A stretch of 32,667 nt of DNA from a virus (taxonomy: Duplodnaviria > Heunggongvirae > Uroviricota > Caudoviricetes). Positions 1,355 through 20,583 of the stretch are shown one piece after another (within the stretch, counting starts at the first letter, position 1; each line of letters begins with the position of its first letter). The DNA lies in the IMG/VR virus record IMGVR_UViG_2563366964_000008, positions 1 to 32,667 of that record. One strand, given 5' to 3'. Below the pieces are notes generated by a model, which worked only from the letters and a program-made list of their open reading frames with translations, was not told the origin of the DNA and ran no database searches. The position numbers and the translations under genes were made by a program.

Positions 1355-1368
1355 ATGCGATCACCTTA

Positions 1369-1707: not shown

Positions 1708-1722
1708 GCAAAAGGAAAAGAA

Positions 1723-2620: not shown

Positions 2621-2630
2621 ATTTATGGGT

Positions 2631-2654: not shown

Positions 2655-2674
2655 CGATGGATGGGATATTGAGG

Positions 2675-4604: not shown

Positions 4605-4624
4605 AGGTCGGTCATGAGCACTAA
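4445..4624 (+). CDS. Hypothetical 59-aa protein with a TTG start, absent from the ORF track
   Basis: AAGGAG (4431..4436), 8-nt spacer, TTG (4445); translation [59 protein letters not shown] is strongly protein-like; stop at 4622..4624 overlaps the start of the next gene. Confidence 0.35.
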
Positions 4625-5555
4625 ATTAACCGGCTATGTATGGGATGGTTGCGCTGCGTCAGGCATGAAATTATCCAGCGTGGCAATTATGGCCCGCCTG
4701 GCTGATTTCAGTAATGACGAAGGTGTGTGCTGGCCATCAATTGAAACCATTGCCCGTCAGATTGGCGCGGGGATGAGTACCGTCAGAACGGCTATCGCAC
4801 GGCTGGAAGCAGAAGGCTGGTTAACGCGTAAGGCGCGTCGCCAGGGTAACCGCAATGCGTCGAATGTTTATCAGCTTAACGTTGCGAAGCTTCAGGCAGC
4901 GGCATTTTCTCAATTGTCAGATTCTGACCCGTCAAAATCTGACGCATCAAAATCTGACCCGTCAAAATTTGATGCGTCGAAATCTGGCAAAAAAGCGGGT
5001 TTTCACCCGTCAGAATCTGGCGGGGATCCGTCAGTAAAATCAAAACATGATCCGTCAGATAAAAAAACTTCTCGTCCGGACGCTTCGCAACCGGACACGC
5101 AGACGGCTGAACAGGAGTTTTTAACTCGCCATCCTGATGCGGTTGTATTCAGCCCTAAAAAGCGCCAGTGGGGAACGCAGGATGATTTGACCTGCGCACA
5201 GTGGCTCTGGAAAAAAATCATCGCCCTGTACGAGCAGGCCGCCGAATGTGACGGCGAGGTGGTTCGTCCCAAAGAACCGAACTGGACAGCCTGGGCAAAC
5301 GAAATTCGCCTGATGTGTGTGCAGGATGGTCGTACTCACAAACAAATCTGCGAGATGTACAGCCGCGTCAGCCGCGATCCGTTCTGGTGCCGTAACGTGC
5401 TCAGCCCGTCGAAGCTGCGGGAAAAATGGGATGAGCTTTCCCTGCGCTTATCGCCGTCCGTCAGCACGTACACCGAAAAACGCGAAGACCCGTACTTCAA
5501 AGCCAGTTACGACAACGTGGACTACAGCCAGATCCCGGCAGGATTCAGGGGGTGA
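4614..5555 (+). CDS. Replication initiator / replisome organiser (O-like; N-terminal HTH, internal iteron-encoded repeat linker)
   Basis: 313-aa ORF; N-terminal winged-HTH-like region; central low-complexity repeats (DPSKSDASKSDPSKFDASKS) encoded by tandem 15-bp DNA repeats; position after cII-like gene. Confidence 0.8.
   Translation: MSTKLTGYVWDGCAASGMKLSSVAIMARLADFSNDEGVCWPSIETIARQIGAGMSTVRTAIARLEAEGWLTRKARRQGNRNASNVYQLNVAKLQAAAFSQLSDSDPSKSDASKSDPSKFDASKSGKKAGFHPSESGGDPSVKSKHDPSDKKTSRPDASQPDTQTAEQEFLTRHPDAVVFSPKKRQWGTQDDLTCAQWLWKKIIALYEQAAECDGEVVRPKEPNWTAWANEIRLMCVQDGRTHKQICEMYSRVSRDPFWCRNVLSPSKLREKWDELSLRLSPSVSTYTEKREDPYFKASYDNVDYSQIPAGFRG
4914..5068. repeat. Candidate origin of replication: about 5 tandem 15-bp iterons (CCGTCAAAATCTGAC-like, 4914..4988) plus 3 degenerate copies (5006..5066) and an A-run
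   Basis: Direct tandem repeats read from the sequence, located inside the initiator gene as in lambda ori. Confidence 0.6.
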
Positions 5556-5557
5556 TC

Positions 5558-6046
5558 ATGAGTCTTTTGAATGAAGTTCAGAAATACATTGAAGCCCATC
5601 CGGGGTGTACTTCCGGAGACATTGCGGATGCTTTTGCAGGTTACTCACGGCAGCGCGTTCTGCAGTCAGCAAGCAAGTTACGTCAGAGTGGTCGTGTGGC
5701 TCACCGTTGTGAAGGGGATACACGCAGACATTTCCCGCGCCTGACTGAGAGAGCGCAGGAGGCGGAACCACAACCAGTTCGTGAAACCAGACCTGTGCGC
5801 AATTTCTATGTCGGCACTAACGACCCGCGGGAGATTTTGTGCCTGACCCGCCAGGCTGAAGAACTGGAGTCCAGGGGCTTATACCGTCGTGCTGCAACGG
5901 TGTGGATGGCGGCATTCCGTGAAAGCCACTCCCAGCCAGAACGAAACAATTTTCTGGCGCGTCGTGAGCGGTGCTTACGGAAAAGCAGCAAGCGCGCTGC
6001 ATCGGGTGAAGAGTGGTATCTGTCAGGGAATTACGTGGGGGCTTAA
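5558..6046 (+). CDS. PerC-family-like transcriptional regulator (C-terminal PerC-like motif)
   Basis: AGGGGG Shine-Dalgarno 6 nt before the ATG at 5558; C-terminal segment AEELESRGLYRRAATVWMAAF matches my recollection of the PerC/Pch signature. Confidence 0.55.
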   Translation: MSLLNEVQKYIEAHPGCTSGDIADAFAGYSRQRVLQSASKLRQSGRVAHRCEGDTRRHFPRLTERAQEAEPQPVRETRPVRNFYVGTNDPREILCLTRQAEELESRGLYRRAATVWMAAFRESHSQPERNNFLARRERCLRKSSKRAASGEEWYLSGNYVGA

Positions 6047-6372
6047 TGACGACGTTAACTCAATGCCAGCAGCAGGTGCTGGATATGCTGATTTCTTATC
6101 AGAAAGAACGTGGCTTCCCACCAACCAATCAGGAGGTGGCAACCATGCTGGGATACCGTTCGGTGAATGCAGCGGTGGAGCATCTTCGTGCGCTGGAGAA
6201 AAAAGGCGTCATCACGATAAAGCGTGGCGTGGCCCGGGGGATAACGCTTCATACCGCGGTGAAGGACGACGACAGCGAGGCGGTCGGGATTATCCGCTCA
6301 CTGCTTGCCGGTGAGGAAAACGCCAGGCTGCGTGCAGCCCACTGGTTACATGAGAGGGGCCTGAAAGTATGA
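6046..6372 (+). CDS. LexA-N-terminal-like winged-helix DNA-binding protein
   Basis: ATG at 6046 overlaps the upstream stop (TAATG); sequence QQQVLDMLISYQKERGFPPTNQEVATMLGYRSVNAAVEHLRALEKKGVI resembles the LexA DNA-binding domain. Confidence 0.55.
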   Translation: MTTLTQCQQQVLDMLISYQKERGFPPTNQEVATMLGYRSVNAAVEHLRALEKKGVITIKRGVARGITLHTAVKDDDSEAVGIIRSLLAGEENARLRAAHWLHERGLKV

Positions 6373-6758
6373 AGCTAATACTGCCTTTTCCGCCCAGCGT
6401 GAACACGTACTGGCGACACCCTAACAAAGGGGCGTTTGCTGGTAAGAGCCTGATAAGCGCAGCGGGGCACAAATTCCAGAGCGCGGCGTGTGCAGCAATA
6501 GTTGAGCAGTTACGTCGTCTGCCAAAACCAACGTCGGCACCTGCTTCAGTGGAGATCGTGTTGTTTCCTCCGGATAACCGGATCCGCGATCTGGACAACT
6601 ATAACAAGGCGCTGTTTGACGCCCTGACCCACGCGGGTGTGTGGGAAGACGACAGTCAGGTGAAAAGAATGCTGGTGGAGTGGGGACCGGTTATCCCGGA
6701 AGGGAAGGTCGAGATCACTATCAGTAAGTACGAGAAACCGGCGGGTGCAGCCGCCTGA
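6369..6758 (+). CDS. rusA: RusA-family Holliday junction resolvase
   Basis: 129-aa ORF; N-terminal MKLILPFPPSVNTYWR and conserved acidic residues typical of RusA. Confidence 0.9.
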   Translation: MKLILPFPPSVNTYWRHPNKGAFAGKSLISAAGHKFQSAACAAIVEQLRRLPKPTSAPASVEIVLFPPDNRIRDLDNYNKALFDALTHAGVWEDDSQVKRMLVEWGPVIPEGKVEITISKYEKPAGAAA

Positions 6759-6777
6759 TTAAGAGGAGAAACGAAGT

Positions 6778-7575
6778 ATGAATAATCTGATGGTTATTGA
6801 TGGTATTGAAGTTCGTCGTGATGCTTATGGGCGTTACAGCCTGAACGATCTGCACAGGGCTGCTGGTTCTCTGGATAAGCATAAGCCTGCATTCTGGCTC
6901 CGCAATGAGCAAACTGAACGTTTAATAAGCGAGTTGCAGATTTGCAACTCGGTCAATATAGAACCAGTTAACGTTATTCGTGGCGGAAATAACCAGGGGA
7001 CGTATGTCTGCAAAGAACTGGTGTATGCCTATGCAATGTGGATCAGCCCGTCATTCCATCTGAAGGTGATCCGTACTTTCGACATGGTAACCAGTGCACC
7101 GGAAAAATTATCCGGACAGGCTGCTGACAAGATGCAGGCTGGTGTGATTCTGCTGGACTTTATGCGCCGGGAATTAAACCTGTCTAACTCTTCAGTGCTT
7201 GGAGCCTGTCAGAAGCTTCAGGAGGCTGTTGGCTTACCGAATCTGGCACCGCGCTATGCCATTGATGCTCCTGCTGACGCGCCTGATGGCTCAAGTCGCC
7301 CCACGCTGTCGCTGAGTGCACTGCTGAAACAGTATGGTATCCGCCTGACGGCTAATCAGGCATATCACCAGATGGCGAAGCTGGGGATCGTTGAACAACG
7401 CGAACGATACAGCCGTACCGCGATTAACAACATCAAAAAATTCTGGTCGCTGACAGCGAAAGGCTGCATGTTCGGCAAGAACATCACCAGTCCCGCAAAT
7501 CCGCGCGAGACGCAGCCGCATTTCTTCGAATCCCGATTCCCTGAGCTGTTAAAGCTGCTCGATACCGTTCATTGA
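6778..7575 (+). CDS. KilA-N domain protein / putative antirepressor
   Basis: AAGAGGAG Shine-Dalgarno; N-terminal KilA-N-like pattern (YGRYSLNDLHRAAG...KPAFWLRNEQTERLI). Confidence 0.7.
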   Translation: MNNLMVIDGIEVRRDAYGRYSLNDLHRAAGSLDKHKPAFWLRNEQTERLISELQICNSVNIEPVNVIRGGNNQGTYVCKELVYAYAMWISPSFHLKVIRTFDMVTSAPEKLSGQAADKMQAGVILLDFMRRELNLSNSSVLGACQKLQEAVGLPNLAPRYAIDAPADAPDGSSRPTLSLSALLKQYGIRLTANQAYHQMAKLGIVEQRERYSRTAINNIKKFWSLTAKGCMFGKNITSPANPRETQPHFFESRFPELLKLLDTVH

Positions 7576-7576
7576 G

Positions 7577-8572
7577 GTGACCGTGAGAGCATTACTGACC
7601 CCTGAAATTGCCCCGCGTATGGGGATCGTATTGTTCAGGCCAGGTTCAGAGCTGATGCCCCTGTTTATGCAGGGGCGTGTCCTGCTGGAGCCTGAGCCAG
7701 AACGTTATTCATCTTTCGCCAGTGGTGCCGTTCCGGCGGCATCACAACCGCTGGCGGATGATCCTGCCGTTCGCGCCGTGTTCCGCAATGAGGCAGTGAT
7801 CCGTCGTGCTGGTGGCGTGGAATGTCTTGAAAGCTGGTTACTTCGTGAAAAGGGCTGTCAGTGGCCTCATTCCAACTGGCACAGCGAGAACATGACCACA
7901 ATGCGACACGCGCCGGGAGCAATTCGTCTGTGCTGGCACTGCGATAACCAGCTGCGCGATCAGTTCACGGAACGGCTGGAATCAATGGCAACGGATAACT
8001 GTGCCCGCTGGGTGTTGTCTGTTGTGCGTCGGGATCTCGGTTTTGATGACAGTCACGTTGTGACAATGCCGGAACTGTGCTGGTGGCTGATTCGTAATGA
8101 TCTGGCGGATGCCTTACCGGAAAGTGCAGCCCGTAAGGCACTGAGATTACCGAAGCCTGTTGTGCCGTCTGTTACCCGGGAAAGTGACCTTGTGCCTTCG
8201 GTTCCTGCCACCAGCATCATCCAGGATAAGGCGAAAAAGGTGCTGGCGCTGAAAGTGGATCCGGAGTCGCCGGAGTCTTTTATGTTACGCCCAAAACGTC
8301 GCCGCTGGGTTAATGAAAAGTACACGCGCTGGGTTAAGACACAGCCGTGTGCATGTTGTGGAAAGCCTGCTGATGATCCCCACCACTTGATAGGCCACTG
8401 TCAGGGTGGAATGGGTACAAAAGCGCATGACCTCTTTGTATTGCCTTTGTGCAGAAAGCATCACGACGAGTTGCATGCGGACACTGTGGCATTTGAAGAG
8501 AAGTATGGTTCCCAACTGGAGCTAATTTTTCGATTTATCGATCGCGCGCTGGCAATTGGTGTGCTGGCCTGA
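7577..8572 (+). CDS. DUF968-like protein with C-terminal HNH-like Cys/His motif
   Basis: 331-aa ORF; C-terminus PCACCGKPADDPHHLIGHCQGG...LCRKHHDELH; start may be the GTG at 7583 rather than 7577. Confidence 0.55.
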   Translation: MTVRALLTPEIAPRMGIVLFRPGSELMPLFMQGRVLLEPEPERYSSFASGAVPAASQPLADDPAVRAVFRNEAVIRRAGGVECLESWLLREKGCQWPHSNWHSENMTTMRHAPGAIRLCWHCDNQLRDQFTERLESMATDNCARWVLSVVRRDLGFDDSHVVTMPELCWWLIRNDLADALPESAARKALRLPKPVVPSVTRESDLVPSVPATSIIQDKAKKVLALKVDPESPESFMLRPKRRRWVNEKYTRWVKTQPCACCGKPADDPHHLIGHCQGGMGTKAHDLFVLPLCRKHHDELHADTVAFEEKYGSQLELIFRFIDRALAIGVLA

Positions 8573-8589
8573 TTTTGTGGAGAGATTTG

Positions 8590-8937
8590 ATGCGTGATAT
8601 GTACGAGGTTTTGGACCGCTGGGGAGCATGGGCAGCAGCAGATAACAGCGGAGTGGACTGGCAGCCGATCGCGGCAGGCTTCAAGGGGCTTTTACCACAC
8701 GGTAAAAAGTCACGCCTCCAGTGTGATGATGATGAAGGGATCATGATAGACGGTTGTGTGGTGCGGTTGCGTAAATATAAACCAGAAGAATATGAACTGA
8801 TCATTGCTCACTTTGTTATAGGTATCTCACTGCGTTCTATCGCGAAGAAACGCAGATGCTCGGATGGCACAATTAGGAAGGAGCTGCAAACTGCAATGGG
8901 ATTTGTTGAGGGATGCATATCAATTTTGTTTTGGTGA
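8590..8937 (+). CDS. Q: Late-gene antiterminator Q (QuuD-like family)
   Basis: Sequence MRDMYEVLDRWGAWAA...FKGLLP...CDDDEG resembles recalled Q/QuuD proteins; GGAG Shine-Dalgarno before the ATG at 8590 (track start 8575). Confidence 0.7.
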   Translation: MRDMYEVLDRWGAWAAADNSGVDWQPIAAGFKGLLPHGKKSRLQCDDDEGIMIDGCVVRLRKYKPEEYELIIAHFVIGISLRSIAKKRRCSDGTIRKELQTAMGFVEGCISILFW

Positions 8938-8941
8938 TTGC

Positions 8942-8963
8942 AGAAGCCGCTTCAGCGGCTTCT
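8942..8963. terminator. Hairpin (9-bp stem agaagccgc/gcggcttct, loop ttca) between convergent Q and the accessory cassette
   Basis: Perfect inverted repeat read from the sequence; no clear U-run on either side, so possibly a bidirectional terminator or RNA-stability element. Confidence 0.4.
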
Positions 8964-8965
8964 AA

Positions 8966-9448
8966 TTAAGTATTCATGTTTTTCTTCTCTTCAAACAATT
9001 CCTTTATTTTCAATGGAATGAAAGTTGATTGTATGAATGAGAAACATGTTAAAAATGAGATTGAATATGCAATAGTGGTTTTTGTATATTCAAAATAAAT
9101 ACCTGAATGTGTTTTATCCTTGGATAAAAGATAAAATACAAATATTAATGCAAGTGTAATTATATACATCAAGAATAGAGTATAGCTTTTTACAAAGCGC
9201 ATATAAAATCGAGTGCTCTGGTTGGCTTTGTCTAATGCATTAAGTGATTTCGAAATTGAGGAGTTCTCACCAGACATAGTAATGACTAGCAATAAAAAAC
9301 CGGATAGGATTGAGAAAACATTTGCAACAAGATTTAATGCGTCATTGTTATTTGTTAAGCTGTTTGTGAGATATTTTGAGAAAAAGAAGGAGGCTAGGAA
9401 GTTTCCTGTGGTAATTATAATTCCCGTCCAGTTATAATCTTTAAACAT
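8966..9448 (-). CDS. Hypothetical membrane protein with four hydrophobic segments, second gene of the accessory cassette
   Basis: 160-aa ORF; hydrophobic stretches WTGIIITTGNFLASFFF, LVANVFSILSGFLLLVITM, YTLFLMYIITLALIFVFYLL, IAYSISFLTCFSFIQSTFIPL; GGGGAGG Shine-Dalgarno; visibly AT-rich DNA. Confidence 0.7.
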   Translation of the reverse strand: MFKDYNWTGIIITTGNFLASFFFSKYLTNSLTNNNDALNLVANVFSILSGFLLLVITMSGENSSISKSLNALDKANQSTRFYMRFVKSYTLFLMYIITLALIFVFYLLSKDKTHSGIYFEYTKTTIAYSISFLTCFSFIQSTFIPLKIKELFEEKKNMNT

Positions 9449-9472
9449 ATGGCCTCCCCGTTTTTAAGTATA

Positions 9473-10294
9473 TTATAACTCATTTGTGACAAAATGCTCT
9501 AAAATTTCATGAGCATATTTGCTGGAAATTGTTTGCGAGCCGTATGGTAACGTGTAGTAAATCTTTGTAAGTTTCATGTCATCGCTAGTGATTTTCTCTC
9601 CTTTTTTAGTTTCAAAGTAAAAGTCACTGTTTAAATCAGATATCCAAGGCGTCGGATTGTTTTCAATTGATGCAGCAACGGCAGGGTTTCCTCTGGCATC
9701 GATAGTAAAATGGCCACTTATTCCTGTTTGTTTTAATTTTGGCTCTTTTTTTACAAACACAGATAAGAAACTAGGCTTGTTAACAAAATCTGATTCATGC
9801 ACGTTGAAATTCACATGTACAGCGCGCAAACCATCATCTTTGACTTTTTGGATTACATTTTTCTTTAAGATAGCTGACGGTATAATATCTATGCCATAGC
9901 ATTTGAAGATTTTTGCTATTTTGACTTCACTCCAGTTAGTGGATATTTGAAGGAGTGAAGCAATTTGATTATCCTTAACCATAAAGAAGGCATGTAAATT
10001 GTCAAAATTTTCAACATCTAACAAATCTTTAGTGTTAGGTTTATTTGGGGTGATCGACACTTCTTCTTTCGGATTGTATAAAGAAAAATGTAAGTAATGG
10101 ATATTACCTTTAGTGCTAAATTCTTTTAATTTTAAATGCCTGTTAGTTGATAACTGGATTATGGAACCCTGTACAAATTTATTATTTGTTGATATTTGCT
10201 GAAATAAATTACCCTTCCCGTCAAGGTTCACATTAAAAGCCCTAACTTGACATTTCTTTGTTAAATTGTTTTTTTTGGTATTAGAAAAGTTCAT
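9473..10294 (-). CDS. Hypothetical 273-aa soluble protein, first gene of the accessory cassette
   Basis: ORF with AAGGGA Shine-Dalgarno; Lys/Asn-rich, no hydrophobic segments, no motif I recognise; 24-nt gap to the downstream membrane-protein gene. Confidence 0.7.
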   Translation of the reverse strand: MNFSNTKKNNLTKKCQVRAFNVNLDGKGNLFQQISTNNKFVQGSIIQLSTNRHLKLKEFSTKGNIHYLHFSLYNPKEEVSITPNKPNTKDLLDVENFDNLHAFFMVKDNQIASLLQISTNWSEVKIAKIFKCYGIDIIPSAILKKNVIQKVKDDGLRAVHVNFNVHESDFVNKPSFLSVFVKKEPKLKQTGISGHFTIDARGNPAVAASIENNPTPWISDLNSDFYFETKKGEKITSDDMKLTKIYYTLPYGSQTISSKYAHEILEHFVTNEL

Positions 10295-10322
10295 AGTTTT
10301 CCCTTATTCGCTGTGTGTCCTT

Positions 10323-10351
10323 ATTGTAAAAAAAAACTAACGCGTACGCAA
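10323..10351 (-). promoter_or_regulatory. Candidate sigma70 promoter for the accessory cassette: -35 TTGCGT, 17-bp spacer, -10 TACAAT on the minus strand
   Basis: Minus-strand -35 at 10346..10351 and -10 at 10323..10328, about 30 nt upstream of the 273-aa gene start. Confidence 0.5.
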
Positions 10352-10396
10352 AAACTATTGTATCGTGTTAAGAGTGGTTACTTCGCCACACAACTT

Positions 10397-10420
10397 AAAC
10401 CCGCCGTCGAGCGGGTTTTG
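10397..10420 (+). terminator. Stem-loop with U-run (aaacccgc/gcgggttt, then tttg); possible tR'-like terminator in the late leader
   Basis: 8-bp stem, 6-nt loop, followed by a T-run on the plus strand, located upstream of the holin gene. Confidence 0.4.
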
Positions 10421-10569
10421 TCATTTCTAGGCCTTGGTATTCGTTGGGCTTGGTCTATCTGGTACTTAGCCATTGGCTCGACTTCTTTTACGTTTCCGCT
10501 TCTGATTTGCGGTACATGATGTTCCCTCAATTTGCACCTCCTGTATTGCGAGGTGAGAGATAACTACAA

Positions 10570-10896
10570 ATGCCTCATAACCCAAATACCTGGCTGGAGT
10601 TGGTCCAGAGCTGGTGGCGTGGAGACACACCGCTGGGCGCAGTGATTATGTCGATTGTTATGGCTGGTTTACGTATCGCCTATTTTGGCGGTGGTGGCGG
10701 CTGGAAGCGAAAAACACTCGAAATTCTACTCTGTGGCGCTCTGACGCTGACTTTTGCATCCGCTCTTGAGTATGTCGGATGGCCTAAATCACTATCTGTT
10801 GCCATTGGTGGTGGGGTGGGGCTGATCGGTGTCGATGCTATTCGTGGGGCTGCAATGCGAGTAATCGGTAACAAATTTGGTGGCTCTAAGGAGTAA
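10570..10896 (+). CDS. S: Holin (lambda S-like class, multiple hydrophobic segments)
   Basis: 108-aa ORF immediately upstream of the endolysin; hydrophobic segments and a Gly-rich motif (AYFGGGGGW); charged C-terminus. Confidence 0.8.
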   Translation: MPHNPNTWLELVQSWWRGDTPLGAVIMSIVMAGLRIAYFGGGGGWKRKTLEILLCGALTLTFASALEYVGWPKSLSVAIGGGVGLIGVDAIRGAAMRVIGNKFGGSKE

Positions 10897-10899
10897 TTT

Positions 10900-11376
10900 A
10901 TGCAGGTACTAAATTCCCAGCGTAAAGCTTTCCTTGATATGGTGGCTTGGTCAGAAGGAACGGATAACGGGCGACAACCGACACGTAACCACGGTTATGA
11001 TGTTATTGTCGGTGGAGAACTCTTCACTGATTACTCCGATCACCCTCGCAAGCTTGTCACGCTAAACCCGAAACTCAAATCAACAGCTGCAGGCCGTTAT
11101 CAACTTCTTTCGCGCTGGTGGGATGCTTACCGCAAGCAGTTAGGGCTGACAGACTTCTCTCCTAAAAGCCAGGATGCTGTTGCATTACAGCAGATTAAAG
11201 AGCGTGGCGCTTTACCGATGATTGATCGCGGCGATATTCGTCAGGCTATCGATCGTTGCAGCAATATCTGGGCGTCGTTACCTGGTGCAGGTTACGGTCA
11301 GTATGAACATAAAATCGGTGACCTGATTTCCCGGTTTAAAGAGGCTGGTGGGGTGGTAAATGAAGTTGAGCTATAA
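10900..11376 (+). CDS. R: Endolysin, lambda R-type lytic transglycosylase
   Basis: 158-aa protein near-identical, as recalled, to lambda R (QRKAFLDMVAWSEGTDNGRQPTRNHGYDVIVGGELFTDYSDHPRK...). Confidence 0.95.
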   Translation: MQVLNSQRKAFLDMVAWSEGTDNGRQPTRNHGYDVIVGGELFTDYSDHPRKLVTLNPKLKSTAAGRYQLLSRWWDAYRKQLGLTDFSPKSQDAVALQQIKERGALPMIDRGDIRQAIDRCSNIWASLPGAGYGQYEHKIGDLISRFKEAGGVVNEVEL

Positions 11377-11752
11377 GCTGGCTATCTCTGCATTCTTCTT
11401 TACTGTCATCGGTTCTTTCATCTGGTCTGCCAACCACTACTACAGCAAATATCAGCACGAAAAGAAACGTGCTGATGAGGCTGTACGAAATGCTGAATCA
11501 GCAACAGCCATTACCAATAACGTCCTGCAATCACTACAAATCGTCAATACAGTTCTGGAGGCTAACCAGCATGCAAAACAGCAGATCGCACTGGAGTCAC
11601 AGAGAACCCAGGAAGATATCAAAGTGGCTGTTGCGGATGATGATTGTGCTTCACGTCCTGTGCCTGCTGCCGCTGCTGACCGGTTGCGGAAGTACGCGGA
11701 CAGTTTACGTGAACACTCCGGCGGTACCACTGCCAGCCAGCCTGACTTCTGA
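11360..11752 (+). CDS. Rz: Rz-like inner-membrane spanin (i-spanin)
   Basis: 130-aa ORF with an N-terminal hydrophobic segment and coiled-coil-like remainder; position after the endolysin; contains an out-of-frame lipoprotein ORF. Confidence 0.75.
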   Translation: MKLSYKLAISAFFFTVIGSFIWSANHYYSKYQHEKKRADEAVRNAESATAITNNVLQSLQIVNTVLEANQHAKQQIALESQRTQEDIKVAVADDDCASRPVPAAAADRLRKYADSLREHSGGTTASQPDF

Positions 11753-11888
11753 AACACCGATTCCAGTTGTACCTAGTCCACTGACATATGGTGCTAGCCT
11801 GGAACTGAATGCGAGTTTGTTATCTGCATTAGCGCAATGCAATAGAGATAAAAAGGATATTCTAAAAATAGGATATCAAAATGAATAA
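11637..11888 (+). CDS. Rz1: Rz1-like outer-membrane lipoprotein spanin (o-spanin), +1 frame, overlapping and extending past Rz
   Basis: MMIVLHVLCLLPLLTGC signal peptide with LTGC lipobox; Pro-rich mature region. Confidence 0.7.
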   Translation: MMIVLHVLCLLPLLTGCGSTRTVYVNTPAVPLPASLTSETPIPVVPSPLTYGASLELNASLLSALAQCNRDKKDILKIGYQNE

Positions 11889-11954
11889 ATATTTTCCGGA
11901 AAATGATTGTAACTGTGCTATAAATATAATCATCAAATAATATAAAGGTGAGTT

Positions 11955-12464
11955 ATGGAAAGGTTTATAAAATCAATTGAATCTTCAATTGAAAGTGAGA
12001 ATTGGTTAGCGGCATTGTTTATGGCTCTTGCTATGCCTGATATTTGCAGGAGCGTTGAACGTCCCAAAATAGGTAAGGGTGAAACAGGGAAATGGTATAA
12101 AGATTGGGTTTCTCGTTATCTTGAAAATAAATATACATCCGGTACACATGAACAGTGTCGATTTTATGCGGATGATTTTTGGCTGTATCGTTGTTCTTGT
12201 TTACATGCTGGACAGGATCCAGAGAACAGGAAAAGAATGATGCAGTTTAATTTTACACCACCACCTAGGCCAAATTGCCAAGTGCATTTAAATCACTTAA
12301 ATGGCAAACTTCAGTTGCAAATAGATGTGTTTTGTCGAGATATGATTGAGGCAGTCAATCAATGGCGTACTGAGGTCGAGGATACGCCAGAAATTAAGGC
12401 TCGTATGGATTCTCTGATAAATATATCATTAGCATCTTTTGGAACATTCATTGTATTTGGTTAA
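11955..12464 (+). CDS. Hypothetical 169-aa protein in an AT-rich island between the lysis and packaging modules (accessory gene candidate)
   Basis: ORF with AAGGTGA Shine-Dalgarno; Cys-containing (about six Cys); flanked by AT-rich non-coding DNA; no family recognised. Confidence 0.6.
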   Translation: MERFIKSIESSIESENWLAALFMALAMPDICRSVERPKIGKGETGKWYKDWVSRYLENKYTSGTHEQCRFYADDFWLYRCSCLHAGQDPENRKRMMQFNFTPPPRPNCQVHLNHLNGKLQLQIDVFCRDMIEAVNQWRTEVEDTPEIKARMDSLINISLASFGTFIVFG

Positions 12465-12571
12465 ATATTAATGAAGTGAATTTTACAGTGGGTACTAAAA
12501 GGTTCATTTCATTTAATGATTTCCCTAACACAAATTAGTTTTTAGAGAGGAAACTATTTAGGACATTAATA

Positions 12572-12922
12572 ATGCCCCCTCGAACCCCAAAAGCCTGCCG
12601 TGTTCGCGGCTGCCGCTCTACAACCACAGACCCGTCAGGCTACTGCGAAAGCCACAAAAGCGAAGGCTGGAAGCAATACAAACCAGGACAATCCCGTCAT
12701 CAGCGCGGCTACGGTTCGAAGTGGGACAGTATCCGCGCGCGTGTCCTGAAGCGTGACAAAGGCCTGTGTCAGTTATGTCTGCGCGCTGGTGTGGTGCGTG
12801 AGGCGAAAACTGTTGACCACATCATCCCTAAAGCGCATGGCGGCACTGATGCCGACTGTAATCTGCAGAGTCTGTGCTGGCCGTGTCATAAGGCGAAGAC
12901 GGCCCGTGAACGGCTTAAGTGA
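12572..12922 (+). CDS. HNH endonuclease (terminase-associated)
   Basis: 116-aa ORF; Cys pairs and HNH motif (DHIIPKAHGGTDADCNLQSLCWPCHKAK); immediately upstream of the small terminase. Confidence 0.85.
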   Translation: MPPRTPKACRVRGCRSTTTDPSGYCESHKSEGWKQYKPGQSRHQRGYGSKWDSIRARVLKRDKGLCQLCLRAGVVREAKTVDHIIPKAHGGTDADCNLQSLCWPCHKAKTARERLK

Positions 12923-12948
12923 TAATAATTCTCAACTGTCTGAGGGGA

Positions 12949-13008
12949 GGGGCGGGTCAAATCTCTGCGGGCTGACGTCTTCCGGACTGCCCGCCCCATC
13001 GTTTTTTT
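12949..13008 (+). terminator. GC-rich nested inverted repeats followed by T7; terminator and/or cos-region candidate
   Basis: ggggcggg (12949..12956) pairs with cccgcccc (12990..12997); inner gcgggc (12967..12972) pairs with gcccgc (12989..12994); T-run 13002..13008. Confidence 0.4.
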
Positions 13009-13047
13009 ATACCCGCGAAAAATGAAATTTAACCAGGAGTGCCGCAT

Positions 13048-13542
13048 ATGGCTGGAACGGCGGGGCGTTCCGGGCGTCGCCCCAAGCCAACGGCGCGCAA
13101 GGCGCTGGCCGGAAACCCCGGCAAGCGAGCCCTGAATAAAGATGAACCTGTTTTTACGCCCATCAAAGGTGTTGAGCCACCGGAGTGGTTCGCTGAAGAA
13201 GATCTCCCTCTCGCTACGATCATGTGGCAACTGACAACTAAAGAACTCTGCGGTCAGGGCCTGCTGTGCGTGACTGACCTCGCGGTGCTTGAGCGGTGGT
13301 GCGTGGCCTACGAGTTCTGGCGACGTGCCGTGAAAAATATTGCCAGACAGGGCAACACCATCACCGGTGCAATGGGCGGTATGGTCAAAAATCCGGAGCT
13401 GACCGCCAAAAAAGAACAGGAGTCCGAGATGAGCAGTACGGGGGCAATGCTCGGACTCGACCCCAGCAGCCGCCAACGTCTGATTGGCCTGGCGGGGCAG
13501 AAGAAAGCCACTAACCCGTTTCTGAAAATCATCGAATCATGA
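13048..13542 (+). CDS. Terminase small subunit (P27 family)
   Basis: N-terminus [34 protein letters not shown] typical of P27-family small terminase; AGGAG Shine-Dalgarno 8 nt before the ATG at 13048. Confidence 0.85.
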
Positions 13543-15272
13543 GCCGGAAATCTTACCCCAACGTAAATGCTGCCAATCAGTATGCCCGTGATGTCGTGCG
13601 CGGAAATATTGTGGCCTGCCAGTTTGTGATTCAGGCCTGCCAGCGCCATCTTGATGACCTGATGGCGGAAAAAAGTAAGTCGTTTCGTTACCGCTTCGAC
13701 AAGGACCTGGCTGAACGGGCCGCCAAATTTATTCAGCTGTTGCCACACACCAAGGGGGAGTGGGCATTCAAGAGGATGCCCATCACGCTGGAGCCGTGGC
13801 AGCTCTTTGTGATCTGCTGTGCGTTTGGCTGGGTCAATAAAGGTACCCGGCTGCGCCGCTTCCGGGAGGTGTATACCGAAATCCCCCGTAAGAACGGCAA
13901 ATCGGCAATCTCTGCCGGTGTCGCCCTGTATTGTTTTGCCTGTGATAACGAGTTTGGCGCGGAAGTGTATTCCGGTGCCACGACAGAGAAACAGGCGTGG
14001 GAAGTCTTTCGCCCGGCGCGACTGATGTGTAAACGCACACCCATGCTGACGGAAGCGTTCGGGATTGAGGTTAACGCCTCAAACATGAACCGTCCGGAGG
14101 ATGGCGCGCGGTTTGAACCGCTGATCGGTAACCCCGGTGATGGTTCATCACCCCACTGTGCGGTGGTGGATGAATATCACGAGCACGCCACCGATGCGCT
14201 TTACACCACGATGCTTACCGGGATGGGGGCGCGACGTCAGCCACTGATGTGGGCCATTACTACTGCAGGGTACAACATTGAGGGGCCGTGCTACGACAAG
14301 CGACGGGAAGTTATCGAGATGCTCAACGGGTCGGTACCCAACGATGAACTGTTCGGGATCATCTATACCGTTGACGAAGGCGATGACTGGACCGACCCGC
14401 AGGTGCTGGAAAAAGCCAACCCGAATATTGGCGTGTCGGTTTATCGCGAATTTTTGTTAAGTCAGCAGCAGCGTGCGAAAAATAACGCCCGTCTGGCAAA
14501 CGTCTTTAAAACAAAACACCTCAATATCTGGGTGTCGGCGCGTTCGGCGTATTTCAACCTGGTGAGCTGGCAGAGCTGCGAGGATAAATCACTGACCCTT
14601 GAGCAGTTCGAGGGGCAGCCGTGCATTCTGGCCTTTGACCTGGCGCGTAAGCTGGATATGAACAGTATGGCGCGACTTTATACCCGCGAGATTGACGGTA
14701 AAACGCATTACTACAGTGTGGCTCCGCGCTTCTGGGTACCGTATGACACGGTGTACAGCGTCGAGAAAAATGAAGATCGCCGGACAGCCGAACGCTTTCA
14801 GAAATGGGTGGAAATGGGCGTTCTGACCGTTACCGCTGGTGCGGAGGTGGATTATCGCTACATCCTCGAGGAGGCCAAAGCGGCGAACAAAATCAGCCCG
14901 GTCAGCGAGTCACCCATCGACCCCTTCGGGGCGACCGGGCTCTCACATGACCTTGCTGATGAAGACCTGAACCCCATCACTATCATTCAGAACTACACCA
15001 ACATGTCCGACCCGATGAAAGAGCTGGAAGCGGCAATTGAATCGGGGCGCTTTCATCATGATGGCAATCCCATCATGACCTGGTGTATCGGCAACGTGGT
15101 CGGCAAAACCATTCCGGGTAACGATGATGTGGTGAAGCCCGTCAAAGAGCAGGCGGAAAACAAAATCGATGGTGCAGTTGCGCTGATTATGGCGGTTGGC
15201 AGAGCCATGCTGTACGAGAAAGAAGACACGTTGTCTGACCACATTGAGTCCTATGGGATCCGCTCGCTTTAA
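13539..15272 (+). CDS. Terminase large subunit
   Basis: 577-aa ORF overlapping the small-terminase stop; ATPase and nuclease domain patterns. Confidence 0.95.
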
Positions 15273-15283
15273 CTGAGGTAATT

Positions 15284-15466
15284 ATGATCATGCTGATTCT
15301 CGCGCCTCTGGTGGGCGTGCTGGGGGCGCTTTTGCTGGCGTATGGTGCCTGGCTGATTTATCCCCCGGCGGGGTTTGTTGTTGCCGGGGCGTTGTGCCTG
15401 TTCTGGTCGTGGCTGGTGGCGAGATATCTTGACCGTACACAGTCGTCTGTCGGCGGAGGTAAATAG
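15284..15466 (+). CDS. Hypothetical small hydrophobic protein
   Basis: 60-aa ORF with two hydrophobic segments between large terminase and portal. Confidence 0.35.
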
Positions 15467-16707
15467 TGTTCTTTTCGGGATTATTTCAACGAAAAAGTGA
15501 CGCACCGGTGACCACGCCAGCAGAGCTGGCGGATGCTATCGGGTTGTCCTACGACACCTATACCGGAAAGCAGATCAGCAGCCAGCGGGCCATGCGACTG
15601 ACGGCGGTTTTTTCCTGTGTCAGGGTGCTGGCGGAGTCGGTCGGGATGTTGCCCTGCAACCTGTATCACCTGAACGGCAGCCTGAAGCAGAGAGCCACTG
15701 GCGAACGTCTGCATAAGCTGATCTCCACGCATCCCAATGGCTATATGACGCCGCAGGAGTTCTGGGAGCTGGTGGTCACCTGTCTGTGCCTGCGGGGAAA
15801 CTTTTACGCCTACAAAGTGAAAGCATTTGGCGAAGTGGCTGAACTGCTGCCCGTCGATCCCGGCTGTGTGGTACCGAAGCTTAACAGTAGCTGGGAGCCG
15901 GTCTATCAGGTCACATTCCCGGACGGCTCCACGGATGTGCTGAGCCAGGAGGATATCTGGCATGTGCGCACGCTGACGCTGGACGGACTGGTGGGGCTGA
16001 ATCCCGTCGCCTATGCCCGCGAGGCAATATCGCTGGCGGCAGCGACTGAAGAGCACGGGGCCAGACTGTTCAGCAATGGTGCGGTGACGTCGGGTGTGTT
16101 GCGTACAGAGCAGACGCTGTCAGATCAGGCTTATGAGCGCCTGAAGAAAGATTTTGAGGAGCGTCACACCGGGCTTGGCAATGCTCACCGCCCGATGATC
16201 CTTGAGATGGGGCTGGACTGGAAGTCGATGGCGCTGAACGCCGAGGACAGCCAGTTCCTGGAAACCCGCAAGTTTCAGCTTGAAGAAATCTGTCGTCTGT
16301 TCCGGGTACCGTTGCACATGGTGCAGAACACCGATCGCGCCACCTTCAACAATATCGAAGAACTGGGGCTCGGATTTATCAACTATTCACTGGTGCCGTA
16401 TCTGACCCGCATCGAACAGCGGATCAACACCGGACTGGTACGAAAAAGTAAGCAGGGCGTTTATTACGCCAAATTTAACGCCGGGGCGTTACTGCGCGGG
16501 GATATGAAGTCCCGTTTTGAAGCCTACGCCACCGGGATTAACTGGGGAATTTACTCTCCCAATGACTGCCGCGACCTGGAAGATATGAATCCGCGTCCCG
16601 GTGGGGATGTCTATCTCACACCGATGAACATGACCACGAAACCCTCCGATGGCAGTAAAGCCGGTAAGCAGAAGGATAACGCCAATGCAGACGAAACAAC
16701 GTCTTGA
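15466..16707 (+). CDS. Portal protein (HK97 family)
   Basis: 413-aa ORF between terminase and prohead protease; conserved portal-like regions. Confidence 0.9.
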   Translation: MFFSGLFQRKSDAPVTTPAELADAIGLSYDTYTGKQISSQRAMRLTAVFSCVRVLAESVGMLPCNLYHLNGSLKQRATGERLHKLISTHPNGYMTPQEFWELVVTCLCLRGNFYAYKVKAFGEVAELLPVDPGCVVPKLNSSWEPVYQVTFPDGSTDVLSQEDIWHVRTLTLDGLVGLNPVAYAREAISLAAATEEHGARLFSNGAVTSGVLRTEQTLSDQAYERLKKDFEERHTGLGNAHRPMILEMGLDWKSMALNAEDSQFLETRKFQLEEICRLFRVPLHMVQNTDRATFNNIEELGLGFINYSLVPYLTRIEQRINTGLVRKSKQGVYYAKFNAGALLRGDMKSRFEAYATGINWGIYSPNDCRDLEDMNPRPGGDVYLTPMNMTTKPSDGSKAGKQKDNANADETTS

Positions 16708-17335
16708 TGTACCGCTGAGTCTGAAATCTGTCAGTGACTCCGGTGAGTTTGAAGGGTATGGCTCCGTCTTTGGTGTAAAGGACAGCCACGATGATGTGGT
16801 GATGTCCGGGGCATTTGCTGCTTCCCTGCGGGCGTGGAGTGACAGAAAAGCGTTACCTGCGCTGCTCTGGCAGCACCGCATGGATGAGCCCATCGGTGTT
16901 TACACCGAAATGAAGGAAGACGATGTCGGGCTTTACGTCAGGGGGCGGTTGCTCATTGATGATGATCCTCTGGCAAAACGCGCACATGCACACATGAAGG
17001 CCGGTTCGTTAACCGGCCTTTCTATTGGGTACGTCCTGAAGGACTGGGAATACGACCAGACGAAAGAAGCCTTTCTGCTGAAAGAAATCGACCTCTGGGA
17101 AGTCAGTCTGGTGACGTTTCCGTCTAACGACGAGGCGCGGATCAGCGACGTCAAGAACGCGCTGGCCCGCGGGGAAATCCCCGAACAGAAAAAAATCGAA
17201 AGAGTCCTGCGTGATGTCGGACTCTCCCGTACCCAGGCCAAAGCATTCATGGCCGGGGGCTATGGCGCACTGTCCCTGCGCGACGCTGAGGATGTGGGCT
17301 CTGCACTGAATGCACTGAAAAATCTGAACTTCTAA
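16685..17335 (+). CDS. Prohead maturation protease (HK97 family)
   Basis: AAGGA Shine-Dalgarno before the ATG at 16685 (track ORF begins at 16649); protease-like region (HDDVVMSGAF...); overlaps the portal 3' end. Confidence 0.85.
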   Translation: MQTKQRLDVPLSLKSVSDSGEFEGYGSVFGVKDSHDDVVMSGAFAASLRAWSDRKALPALLWQHRMDEPIGVYTEMKEDDVGLYVRGRLLIDDDPLAKRAHAHMKAGSLTGLSIGYVLKDWEYDQTKEAFLLKEIDLWEVSLVTFPSNDEARISDVKNALARGEIPEQKKIERVLRDVGLSRTQAKAFMAGGYGALSLRDAEDVGSALNALKNLNF

Positions 17336-17349
17336 TCAGGAGAAATACG

Positions 17350-18555
17350 ATGGCGGTTGATATTAAAGATGTCGAACAGGTCGCGCAGGAGCTGCAGCAG
17401 AAGTTTGACGACTTCAAAGCAAAGAACGACAAGCGCGTGGATGCGATTGAGCAGGAAAAAGGCAAACTTGCCGGGCAGGTGGAAACCCTGAACGGGAAAC
17501 TCAGCGAGCTGGAAAACCTCAAAAGCGATCTTGAAAAAGAGCTGCTTGAGCTGAAACGTCCGGCAGGTGGTGCGCAAAATAAACTGGCCACCGAGCATAA
17601 AGAGGCGTTTGTGGGCTTCCTGCGTAAAGGCCGTGAAGACGGTCTGCGCGATCTGGAGCGTAAGGCATTGCAGGTGGGCACCGATGAAGACGGTGGCTAC
17701 GCCGTGCCGGAAGAACTGGATCGCAACATTCTTAACCTGCTGAAAGATGAAGTGGTGATGCGTCAGGAAGCCACGGTGATCACCGTTGGTGGTTCCGACT
17801 ACAAAAAACTGGTGAATCTGGGCGGCACGGCTTCCGGATGGGTTGGCGAGACTGACGCGCGCTCCCAGACTGCCACCTCAAAACTGGGGCTGATTGAACC
17901 TTTCATGGGGGAAATCTACGGTAACCCGCAGGCCACCCAGAAAATGCTGGATGATGCCTTTTTCAACGTGGAGGCCTGGATCAACAGCGAGCTGGCAACC
18001 GAATTTGCCGAACAGGAAGAAATTGCCTTTACCACCGGCGATGGTACCAAGAAGCCGAAAGGGTTCCTGGCGTATGAATCCACGGATGAAACCGATAAGG
18101 TCCGGGCGTTCGGCAAACTTCAGCATATTGTATCCGGCGACGCGACTGCGGTGACCGCAGACGCCATTATCAAACTGATTTACACGCTGCGAAAGGCACA
18201 CCGCACTGGCGCGAAGTTCATGATGAACAACAACAGCCTGTTTGCCATCCGTCTGCTGAAAGACACCGAGGGTAACTATCTGTGGCGTCCGGGGCTGGAA
18301 CTGGGGCAGCCGTCCTCTCTGGCGGGTTACGGTATCGCTGAAAACGAACAGATGCCGGATATCGCCGCTGATGCGAAAGCCATTGCATTTGGTAACTTCA
18401 AACGGGGTTACACCATCGTTGACCGTATCGGCACCCGCATTCTGCGTGACCCGTACACCAATAAACCGTTTGTCGGTTTTTATACCACCAAACGCACCGG
18501 CGGCATGCTGGTCGATTCGCAGGCCATCAAACTGCTGAAGATTGCAGTGGCGTAA
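17350..18555 (+). CDS. Major capsid protein (HK97 fold) with N-terminal coiled-coil delta/scaffold domain
   Basis: 401-aa ORF; N-terminal 100 aa coiled-coil (scaffold-like); C-terminal region typical of HK97-family capsid proteins. Confidence 0.95.
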   Translation: MAVDIKDVEQVAQELQQKFDDFKAKNDKRVDAIEQEKGKLAGQVETLNGKLSELENLKSDLEKELLELKRPAGGAQNKLATEHKEAFVGFLRKGREDGLRDLERKALQVGTDEDGGYAVPEELDRNILNLLKDEVVMRQEATVITVGGSDYKKLVNLGGTASGWVGETDARSQTATSKLGLIEPFMGEIYGNPQATQKMLDDAFFNVEAWINSELATEFAEQEEIAFTTGDGTKKPKGFLAYESTDETDKVRAFGKLQHIVSGDATAVTADAIIKLIYTLRKAHRTGAKFMMNNNSLFAIRLLKDTEGNYLWRPGLELGQPSSLAGYGIAENEQMPDIAADAKAIAFGNFKRGYTIVDRIGTRILRDPYTNKPFVGFYTTKRTGGMLVDSQAIKLLKIAVA

Positions 18556-18561
18556 TCACTC

Positions 18562-18583
18562 AGGGGCGCGGAACCGCGCCCCT
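18562..18583 (+). other. Hairpin after the capsid gene (aggggcgcg gaac cgcgcccct)
   Basis: Perfect 9-bp GC-rich stem; weak T-run, so possibly an attenuator or mRNA-stability element. Confidence 0.35.
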
Positions 18584-18603
18584 GTTCTGATGGGTGAAGA
18601 ATC

Positions 18604-18804
18604 ATGATCCTGAAACAAGATCTGAAATGGTCACCGGACGGTATGCGTGTTGAGGTCATTCGGGCCGGTGAGTATGACGACGGGGCGCTTCCTGCCCGGG
18701 TGCAGGAGGTTGCACTTCAGGCCGGGTTAGCAGAGCGCGGAACCAGTGCAAAAAGCAGTAAAGCGACAAAAGAGAAAAAAGCCACGACCAGTAAAGAGGG
18801 CTGA
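18604..18804 (+). CDS. Hypothetical small protein with Lys-rich C-terminus
   Basis: 66-aa ORF between capsid and connector genes. Confidence 0.4.
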   Translation: MILKQDLKWSPDGMRVEVIRAGEYDDGALPARVQEVALQAGLAERGTSAKSSKATKEKKATTSKEG

Positions 18805-18806
18805 GT

Positions 18807-19130
18807 ATGCTTCTGACAATGGAAGAGATTAAAGCCCAACTCCGGCTGGATGAGGATTTCGATGCTGATGACCGCCATCTGCAACTGCTGGCCTGTGCGG
18901 CACAAAAGCGGACGGAAACGTATCTGAACCGGAAGCTCTATGCACCGGATGAAACCATTCCGGACAGCGATCCGGACGGGCTGCACCTGCCGGATGATAT
19001 TCGTCTGGGGATGCTGATGCTTATCAGCCATTTTTACGAAAACCGCTCGTCGGTTACGGAAGTGGAGAAACTCGACATGCCGCAGAGTTTTGGCTGGCTT
19101 GTCGGCCCGTACAGGTACTTTCCGCAATGA
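18807..19130 (+). CDS. Head-tail connector / DNA-packaging protein (gp6-like)
   Basis: 107-aa ORF; N-terminal EEIKAQLRLDEDFDADD motif typical of gp6-like connectors. Confidence 0.75.
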   Translation: MLLTMEEIKAQLRLDEDFDADDRHLQLLACAAQKRTETYLNRKLYAPDETIPDSDPDGLHLPDDIRLGMLMLISHFYENRSSVTEVEKLDMPQSFGWLVGPYRYFPQ

Positions 19131-19537
19131 AAATTCGTCAGGCGCAGACCAGCGCAACCTACATTCTGCCGGACCCCGGTGAACTGAATAAACGCGTCCT
19201 GATCCGCCAGCGGGTGGATATGCCCGCGGATAACTTTGGCGTGGAGCCTCAATACCCGGTTACGTTCCGGACATGGGCGAAGGTTATCCAGACCAGTGCC
19301 ACCACCTGGCAGGAAACCGCGCAGACCGGGGACGCCATCACCCATTACATCACCATTCGTTACCGCCGGGGGATCACCGCTGATTATGAGGTGGTCTGCG
19401 GTGACAGTGTGTACCGGGTGAAACGTCAGCGCGATCTGAACGGGGCGCGGCGCTTTCTGCTGCTGGAGTGTACGGAGCTGGGCGAATGTAGGCAGAGTCA
19501 CGGAGGCAACAATGACGACTTCCTTTTTGCACGTTGA
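19127..19537 (+). CDS. Head closure / head-tail joining protein
   Basis: 136-aa ORF; conserved position and size; HYITIRYR motif. Confidence 0.7.
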   Translation: MKIRQAQTSATYILPDPGELNKRVLIRQRVDMPADNFGVEPQYPVTFRTWAKVIQTSATTWQETAQTGDAITHYITIRYRRGITADYEVVCGDSVYRVKRQRDLNGARRFLLLECTELGECRQSHGGNNDDFLFAR

Positions 19538-20575: not shown

Positions 20576-20583
20576 GGATCCTC

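Follow-up and report, generated by a model that had tools for sequence, protein, structure and literature searches.

A cargo gene between the lysis and packaging modules of a lambdoid prophage encodes a HEPN-like protein, a candidate solo abortive-infection ribonuclease

The described systems closest to the gene discussed here are mostly defences that a prophage mounts with a single protein. The best functional model is HepS (STM14_3211), a solo HEPN anticodon nuclease of the Salmonella prophage Gifsy-1. It has at least 203 residues and the motif R100-N101...H105-x-I107, and its N- and C-terminal strands bind a J tail-tip peptide (PMC13043305). Tha, from Staphylococcus aureus prophages, has 301 residues, a C-terminal HEPN ribonuclease (RNase) domain with R265NSIMH270 and a cognate inhibitor, Ith (PMC11087260). 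Tai, from prophages of the phi80 type and from phage-inducible chromosomal islands, is not a HEPN protein; it blocks tail assembly, and the immune genes lie upstream of the packaging module (PMC11364771). In the EcoprrI locus, finally, prrC sits between hsdS and hsdR of a type I restriction-modification (R-M) system (PMC3710099). We describe here an open reading frame (ORF) at positions 11955..12464, plus strand, of a 32,667-nucleotide stretch of tailed-phage DNA (IMG/VR record IMGVR_UViG_2563366964_000008), which as a whole we call the window. The ORF starts with ATG and encodes a HEPN-like protein of 169 amino acids that belongs to PHROG 18591, and the lambdoid prophage that carries it has a head of the HK97 type and a tail of the Mu type. 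We believe the product is a stand-alone HEPN RNase that acts as an anti-phage abortive-infection moron, and we give this reading a probability of roughly 0.55. Like HepS it would be a solo prophage HEPN protein, and like Tha and Tai a defence made of one prophage-encoded protein.

The argument begins with two residues. R79 and H84 are the sole invariant columns in alignments of 111 and 156 relatives (156 of 156 for each). Among 129 further unique sequences 124 fit the R-x4-H pattern, and the other five are fragments, an R-x5-H variant or sequences with a change in the PDxC anchor of the pattern; every complete member keeps R-x4(5)-H. In the window protein the motif is R79-C80-S81-C82-L83-H84 (codons 12189..12206, plus strand), a putative RNase active site, and the family consensus is L-R-[C/N]-x-x-L-H-x-G. 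The residue after the arginine is Cys in 148 of the 156 relatives and Asn in 8, and in the further set Cys in 113 of 124 and Asn in 9. Asn at this place, in 5-7% of relatives, gives the canonical HEPN RN...H. Two positions after the histidine there is a Gly in about 95% of the family. Two more residues are nearly as constant: D29, in the sequence P-D-I-C, is kept in 155 of 156 relatives and H111 (codon 12285-12287) in 151 of 156. The preliminary description of this DNA had recognised no signature in the protein, yet the very cysteine-bearing peptide it pointed to, CRFYADDFWLYRCSCLH, is the one that holds R79 and H84.

The predicted fold puts these residues where a HEPN protein would have them. 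In HEPN domains the R-x4-6-H motif lies at the end of core helix 3 and the start of the loop to helix 4, with a polar N, D or H right after the conserved R. Helix 2 has a conserved acidic residue, often in an E-x3-[KR] context, variable inserts occur between helices 2 and 3, and Csx1-type members have a beta-hairpin directly after the motif (Anantharaman et al. 2013, PMC3710099). The AlphaFold model of the window protein (pLDDT, a score from the predicted local distance difference test, 88.4; predicted template-modelling score, pTM, 0.84) has helices at 2-13, 17-35, 44-61, 72-83, 89-95, 123-141 and 145-152, and residues 98-122 form a beta insert of three strands. Helix 72-83 holds R79 in its last turn, and the loop after it begins with H84. 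Helix 44-61 is an insert between helices 17-35 and 72-83, and 123-141 is the last core helix. D29 lies in helix 17-35, not in an E-x3-[KR] context. The beta-hairpin or sheet insert, residues 98-122 (codons 12246..12320, plus strand), follows right after the motif in both models we built and contains H111. The second of these is of a Bacillus member with 36% identity (pLDDT 84.9, built with the same 18-sequence alignment). The top 14 structural matches of that model were all HEPN proteins: Csx1-Crn2, HepT toxins, AF0298, Csm6, Las1, ST0689, HI0074, the C-domain of kanamycin nucleotidyltransferase and AbiV. Cas13h1, LsoA, AbiA and MtlR ranked lower. The models predict an all-alpha, up-down four-helix core resembling HEPN domains. 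Since the model agrees with this description in the place of the motif and of the inserts, and offers D29 as a candidate for the acidic residue of helix 2, we assign the protein to the HEPN superfamily at the level of fold and motif, and we consider it quite probable that it is a HEPN-fold protein with an R-x4-H active site, forming a new sequence family. It is the sequence family that is new. HEPN conflict RNases and solo prophage HEPN defences are already known, and no new principle is involved.

This family is very large and very widely spread. A profile search of 1.84 billion cluster representatives (clusters at 50% identity) found 2,853 at E<=1e-3 and 1,734 at E<=1e-10. Close homologues, at 55-78% identity, occur in other enterobacterial prophages. 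Orthologues at 60-75% identity occupy the same lysis/packaging junction in phages of Serratia, Citrobacter and Escherichia sp. and in metagenomic lambdoid phages, and these phages use four different packaging modules (P27-TerS/HNH, Nu1/GpA, Terminase_2 and portal_3/Mu_F), a sign that the gene is mobile. More distant relatives, at 30-36% identity, are found in an SPbeta-like Bacillus prophage. About 35 records of temperate Arthrobacter phages carry distant relatives as well, and in the one record examined the gene adjoins integrase genes and is transcribed against the direction of the tail genes. By tblastn there were also matches in records of Gordonia and Acinetobacter phages. Two strict peptide patterns, on which these counts rest, found relatives on 94 IMG/VR contigs and in 66 species-representative genomes. 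The host phyla are Proteobacteria, Firmicutes, Actinobacteria, Bacteroidota, Cyanobacteria, Chloroflexi, Planctomycetota, Verrucomicrobiota, Acidobacteriota and Nitrospira, together with lineages of the candidate phyla radiation (CPR) and one Woesearchaeote. Judged from the alignments, the signature of the clade is P-D-I-C ... R-C-x-x-L-H-x-G plus a His-bearing beta-hairpin insert; it covers at least 2,800 clusters and has no model in Pfam, NCBIfam or PADLOC. Escherichia phage ECP1 has an unannotated homologue with 46% identity (L019 4001-4444, which is NC_049926.1 8614-9057) between spanin/KilA-N genes and an HNH endonuclease gene. Some members are longer, for instance P0089 (328 residues) and P0042 and P0087 (about 325 residues). 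There is fusion to C-terminal TPR repeats, seen in one relative, and elsewhere an N-terminal extension of about 140 residues with no Pfam match. These added parts may be sensor modules.

The cassette that carries the window gene is well defined. Among 5,426 complete E. coli genomes its flanking backbone is present in over 1,200 and the cassette itself in only 19. One prophage locus (L087) is an empty site with 26 bp between lysC and the HNH gene, and alignment with it, together with the other alleles and the GC profile, puts the AT-rich insert at about 11866-12569 (taken as a plus-strand cassette, 11866..12569). Backbone homology, by BLAST and by global alignment to L002, L003 and L087, stops at about 11851-11865 and resumes at 12570. 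The left neighbour is the Rz1/LysC o-spanin gene (11640..11888, plus strand), as annotated in the 99.9%-identical locus L001 from the prophage of E. coli strain 19A14 and as seen in alignments. The right neighbour is the HNH endonuclease gene (12572..12922, plus strand; PF01844, E 5e-15, and alignments), followed by a P27-type small terminase gene. Because homology ends within Rz1, the last eight or so Rz1 codons and the stop come from the cassette. The C-terminal tail and stop codon of the o-spanin (11851-11888) in fact differ with each cargo allele. At least six other, unrelated AT-rich cargoes fill the same slot in related prophages, at GC 0.31-0.42. A regulator of the GrlR family and a protein of the YodC family are among them. 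The others are unrelated hypothetical proteins, encoded on one strand or the other, several of which had no match in Pfam or PADLOC. Examples lie at L002 3187-3953, L003 3187-3770, L088 648-1155 and L089 648-1577. The L002 cargo, a 168-residue protein, was compared with the window protein and rejected as unrelated. The Rz1/HNH slot is a genuine cargo hotspot of related E. coli prophages, and both the cassette and the hotspot are established.

Composition leads to the same place. The 5' spacer of the ORF (66 bp, 11889-11954) has GC 0.24 and the 3' spacer (107 bp, 12465-12571) GC 0.26. The whole insert of about 700 bp has GC 0.34, and the ORF has GC 0.375 with 0.282 at third codon positions (GC3). 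The Rz, lysozyme and holin genes have GC 0.49-0.52 and GC3 0.43-0.50, and the HNH, TerS and TerL genes GC 0.55-0.58 and GC3 0.59-0.66. The preliminary description had proposed an accessory gene of this size, with a good Shine-Dalgarno and AT-rich spacers, standing alone as an AT-rich island between Rz1 and the HNH endonuclease. All of this was found at the coordinates it gave. The 19A14 annotation and the PF01844 match agree on the flanks, the core-like composition or homology to a structural or packaging protein that would have counted against it was not seen, and the frequencies in E. coli and the other alleles of the slot support an accessory single-gene cassette in a true cargo hotspot. 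Its further idea, that this is a site of defence or virulence cargo, stands as far as the hotspot goes; defence is the likeliest category of cargo, as we argue below.

Morons, as defined by Hendrix and colleagues, are extra genes of lambdoid phages, with bor and lom as examples. A moron is inserted between genes that are adjacent in related phages, and the empty L087 allele shows exactly this. Its composition is distinct from its flanks, and here GC 0.34 and GC3 0.28 stand against 0.49-0.58 and 0.43-0.66. The window gene is therefore like the lambdoid morons in being an extra gene of deviant composition, between normally adjacent genes, with promoter-like DNA of its own. It differs from them in having no clear terminator in the window. 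It differs also in its product, since bor and lom encode envelope proteins and the window gene a predicted cytoplasmic HEPN-like protein. The comparison with bor and lom made in the preliminary description thus applies to the position and not to the protein, in which inspection showed no obvious signal peptide or lipobox Cys.

The promoter-like DNA deserves attention because it is conserved. A putative extended -10 element, TGCTATAAA (TGn plus a -10 hexamer), lies at 11916..11924 on the plus strand, 39 nucleotides before the ATG, and was recognised by its match to the consensus and by its conservation. Of 9 enterobacterial loci, 7 have it at -37 or -39, while L017 has TGCTATAAG, which differs by one base; most IMG/VR copies show the element again. 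Among the loci that share it the upstream DNA is otherwise divergent and the phage contexts differ. The Shine-Dalgarno AAGGTGAG, read from the sequence at 11945..11952, plus strand, lies 3-4 nucleotides before the ATG, and the block AAAGGTGA is kept in homologous loci. The consensus match and the conservation suggest a putative extended -10 promoter belonging to the gene itself. There is also a perfect 12-bp palindrome, TTTTCCGGAAAA, at 11892..11903, just upstream of the putative -10 and in the place expected for a -35 element or an operator. Orthologous loci do not keep it and have a different inverted repeat there instead. In the Citrobacter prophage L011 a promoter-like block of about 45 bp (GGCATTCACTGAGTGCCTGTGATAATGCTATAAAT...) with a short inverted repeat occurs at about 5930-5975 and again at about 6545-6600, duplicated before two successive cargo genes, the HEPN-like gene and then a DUF6979 gene. 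This duplication suggests, on sequence grounds, a portable promoter/operator module common to morons. At the other end of the gene, the AT-rich 3' spacer (12465..12571, plus strand) has a long weak AT-rich hairpin at about 12466-12518. The fold of this spacer is not significant (z-score -1.58) and the spacer is not conserved among orthologous loci. The Citrobacter orthologue has a clean intrinsic terminator at the matching 3' position.

Elsewhere the neighbours of the family were clustered. Among 344 neighbours (up to three genes per side) of 61 loci there was no conserved partner or antitoxin gene, and with no conserved partner we regard this as a solo system. The sole exception, an informative one, is the set of type I R-M genes that accompany a Clostridial branch. 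Five Clostridial species carry this branch inside type I R-M operons (5 of the 66 species loci; hidden Markov model, HMM, E values 1e-23 to 1e-27). In three of them (L076, L080 and L081) the family gene has hsdS on one side and hsdR on the other, although in L076 it is separated from hsdS by an uncharacterised ORF of 348 residues. The gene of L085 comes after hsdS and that of L082 after hsdS plus an ApeA gene, and downstream of these two no hsdR was identified. Where the genes are adjacent their spacing is -25 to +4 nucleotides. The motif of this branch is often R-N-x-x-L-H-Q-G, with the canonical R-N. L082 is a metagenome-assembled genome of a rumen Acutalibacteraceae. Its ApeA gene (ApeA_NTD1 plus HEPN_Apea, 4541-5974) and its family gene (5998-6591) are adjacent, both downstream of hsdM and hsdS, and the contig ends shortly after. 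This arrangement would place two different HEPN effectors in one type I R-M operon. In Melainabacteria the homologue is flanked by an AAA_15/AAA_21 ATPase gene and a DEAD/ResIII helicase gene.

Here the comparison with PrrC and RloC becomes useful. The likeness is that the Clostridial branch sits in type I R-M operons and, in 3 of 5 loci, in the hsdS-hsdR slot that prrC occupies. By analogy this suggests that the branch serves as a second-line RNase, which either guards the R-M system or is guarded by it. The difference is one of architecture. PrrC and RloC, with from about 400 to over 800 residues, have a regulatory ABC ATPase domain at the N-terminus, whereas the window family is a bare HEPN-like domain. 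The window gene itself is unlike prrC, lying in a prophage lysis/packaging slot without R-M linkage and encoding a protein with no Pfam ATPase match.

The other known systems can be separated in a similar way. HepS as described in print is longer and has Ile two positions after the His, where the window family mostly has Gly. No chain in the PDB copy searched matched the family profile, an indirect sign, and the two do not appear to be the same family. We considered STM2620 of the LT2 Gifsy-1 as the counterpart of HepS and rejected it, since it lacks the motif; HepS is not in the LT2 Gifsy-1 record. Tha is also a HEPN protein, and identity with it was rejected because of its 301 residues and different architecture. 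Tai genes share with the window gene the location upstream of packaging. A relation to Tai by sequence was rejected, and the tblastn search of the phage collection gave Escherichia matches only in ECP1 among the matches listed. Csx1 and Csm6 belong to type III CRISPR-Cas systems; the window protein lacks both a CARF sensor domain and any CRISPR association, and is not detectably similar to them in sequence. It likewise differs from HepT (DUF86) and AbiV in having no adjacent MNT or antitoxin gene, no RNxxxHxY AMPylation motif and no Pfam match. Finally, no HMM of PADLOC-DB v2.0.0, a catalogue of anti-phage defence systems, matched it.

The following scenario seems to us the most reasonable. 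The cassette would be a horizontally acquired moron made up of a putative extended -10 promoter, a Shine-Dalgarno and one gene. Its 169-residue cytoplasmic product would be a minimal stand-alone member of the HEPN superfamily and a metal-independent endoribonuclease. The active site would be formed by R79 and H84 (in R-C-x-x-L-H-x-G, where core helix 3 ends). As other HEPN enzymes do, the protein would probably build it across the interface of a homodimer, and D29 in helix 2 and H111 in the beta-hairpin insert are likely auxiliary residues. The lysogen would make the protein from the gene's own promoter and hold it inactive. An infecting phage would activate it, through a phage protein or some change brought about by infection, and the activated protein would then cut tRNA or mRNA, so that translation stops and the infection is aborted. 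The lysogen population and the prophage would be protected, which is the logic of HepS, Tha, PrrC and RnlA. A broader version of this proposal is more tentative, and we would not quite bet on it: that the ORF is the E. coli member of a large clade of minimal HEPN ribonucleases, self-contained sensor-effector proteins of abortive infection that temperate phages shuttle as promoter-bearing morons and that Clostridia have wired into their type I R-M operons in the place of PrrC, with no ATPase regulator.

Several results weigh against the view that this is a HEPN RNase of anti-phage defence, and it is important to set them out together. No sequence profile ties the family to a curated HEPN domain: the window protein matched no model in Pfam, NCBIfam or PADLOC (its sole match is PHROG 18591, of unknown function), none of 111 relatives matched Pfam at E<=1, and PADLOC (PADLOC-DB v2.0.0, 2023) had no match for the window protein or its distant relatives. 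The family profile found no matching chain among the PDB sequences, and the only thing that a sequence search there brought up was a metalloendopeptidase, matched by chance (E 1.1). Aligned by hhalign with one ApeA HEPN domain the family reached a probability of 0.3%, and Foldseek against the PDB found nothing at E<1. The mapping of the HEPN helices is our own assignment, and the equivalence of R79 and H84 rests on their position in the secondary structure rather than on a residue-level superposition. The residue after the arginine is mostly Cys, not the usual polar N, D or H. As for context, the neighbours in 56 diverse genomes are heterogeneous and include housekeeping genes, and Pfam and PADLOC scans of 150 neighbours in these genomes revealed no clear defence-island enrichment. 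As for expression, neither a sigma-70 site with both hexamers nor a -35 turned up in the 5' spacer when it was scanned for generic promoters, and a terminator scan found no intrinsic terminator on the plus strand after the window gene.

The alternatives nearest to our reading keep the RNase and change its beneficiary. A HEPN-type RNase could serve the phage itself rather than defend the host, made during lytic growth as part of the late operon, or early on from a promoter of its own, to shut off host or competitor RNAs, to process phage transcripts, or as counter-defence that degrades RNA-based or cyclic-oligonucleotide signals. Some Csm6/Csx1 HEPN domains degrade immune signals of this kind, and Csx1 and Csm6 rank high among the structural matches. 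The gene runs in the direction of the late operon, lies between lysis and packaging genes and has no strong terminator before or after it, so Q-antiterminated late transcription would read through it, and the family is abundant on phage genomes. Yet the backbone can do without the gene, as the empty-site and alternative-cargo alleles show, and the conserved promoter-like element, dedicated to the gene, speaks for an expression that does not depend on the late operon. Many members, moreover, are in non-phage chromosomes, including type I R-M operons and places with defence-type ATPase and helicase neighbours, and host defence fits these better. We consider this alternative unlikely. A little less credible still is an addiction or stabilisation toxin, in which a HEPN RNase is checked by some unrecognised antitoxin, be it a small RNA, the product of a small ORF or a host factor, and mainly serves to keep the prophage or cassette in the genome. 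HEPN is the commonest toxin of type VII (HepT/MntA) and other toxin-antitoxin systems, HepT toxins are among the best structural matches, and the cassette is small, mobile and AT-rich. What speaks against it is the lack of a conserved neighbour gene in the 61 loci, the variable 3' spacer of the orthologous loci, and a cassette in which we found no direct or tandem repeats and no Rfam match that would indicate an RNA antitoxin; the inverted repeats there are only weak or imperfect (73-90% complementary). This alternative overlaps with the reading we prefer, since toxin-antitoxin action and abortive infection are not mutually exclusive.

Two other alternatives give up the RNase altogether. The preliminary description had suggested a possible metal-binding protein because of its cysteines, and one may imagine a metal- or thiol-dependent four-helix-bundle protein, DinB-like or some other metalloprotein, with ligands drawn from D29, C31, C80, H84, H111 and C127. 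The protein does have six cysteines (C31, C68, C80, C82, C107 and C127). Three of them, C68, C82 and C107, are variable. The other three are conserved in 88-95% of relatives. In 5-12% of them each gives way singly to Ala, Asn, Val, Ser or Gly, and the losses are uncorrelated. By this pattern C31, C80 and C127 look like small buried residues and not co-ligands. No set of three or four Cys/His ligands is kept together, and the co-variation of the cysteine losses led us to reject an obligate Zn site; the metal-binding suggestion is not supported. A catalytic or auxiliary metal near H84 and H111 may be present, but a metalloprotein in place of an RNase is improbable. Last, the gene could encode a lysogenic-conversion or virulence factor like bor or lom, or a regulator, with no relation to nucleic-acid cleavage. 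Its position matches that of bor in lambda, and the same slot elsewhere holds a GrlR-family regulator and a YodC-family protein. The protein itself points the other way: on inspection it has no obvious signal peptide at the N-terminus, no lipobox Cys and no long stretch of hydrophobic residues, it begins with the hydrophilic MERFIKSIESSIESENW, the predicted fold is alpha-helical and soluble, and fold and motif indicate HEPN. The family also occurs in nearly all bacterial phyla, in CPR and in soil actinophages, where host virulence makes no sense. We regard this possibility as very remote.

A few observations concern the rest of the window. It is colinear with the 19A14 prophage only over 10918-28699, and the late region from the lysozyme gene on is 97.9% identical. 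The immunity, replication and nin region (1-10917; CI at 2675-3367 on the minus strand, CII, RusA, KilA-N, DUF968 and Q) is unrelated to that prophage. The window prophage is a mosaic. A second AT-rich island lies at 8940-10400 (GC about 0.29-0.36), between the antiterminator gene Q (8575-8937) and the holin gene (10570-10896), and holds two minus-strand ORFs. The one at 8966-9448 (160 residues) has a weak DUF4064-like match (E 5e-5) under the Pfam cutoff. The other, at 9473-10294 (273 residues), belongs to PHROG 23561 ('unknown') and had no match in Pfam, NCBIfam, PADLOC or the PDB. In other prophages the slot between Q and the holin carries tRNA-Asn and tRNA-Thr (19A14) or an SDH-type ClpP-like protease (strain QDFD216). 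The two genes of this second island may form a module for defence or conversion.

The Rz1/HNH-terminase junction of SfV/HK97-like E. coli prophages is now documented as a hotspot with many uncharacterised alleles. If our reading of the window gene is true, a very common unnamed family would gain a function, and a single-domain HEPN RNase of 170 residues would be a one-gene immune system. PADLOC and Pfam-based annotation would then be missing the family, so that surveys of prophages and defence islands undercount. A small protein without partners would also be a tractable model for a question newly raised by HepS: how one and the same bare HEPN domain can sense infection and keep itself in check. 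The Clostridial arrangement, with the gene between hsdS and hsdR, provides a natural test of RNases that are guarded by R-M systems without an ATPase module.

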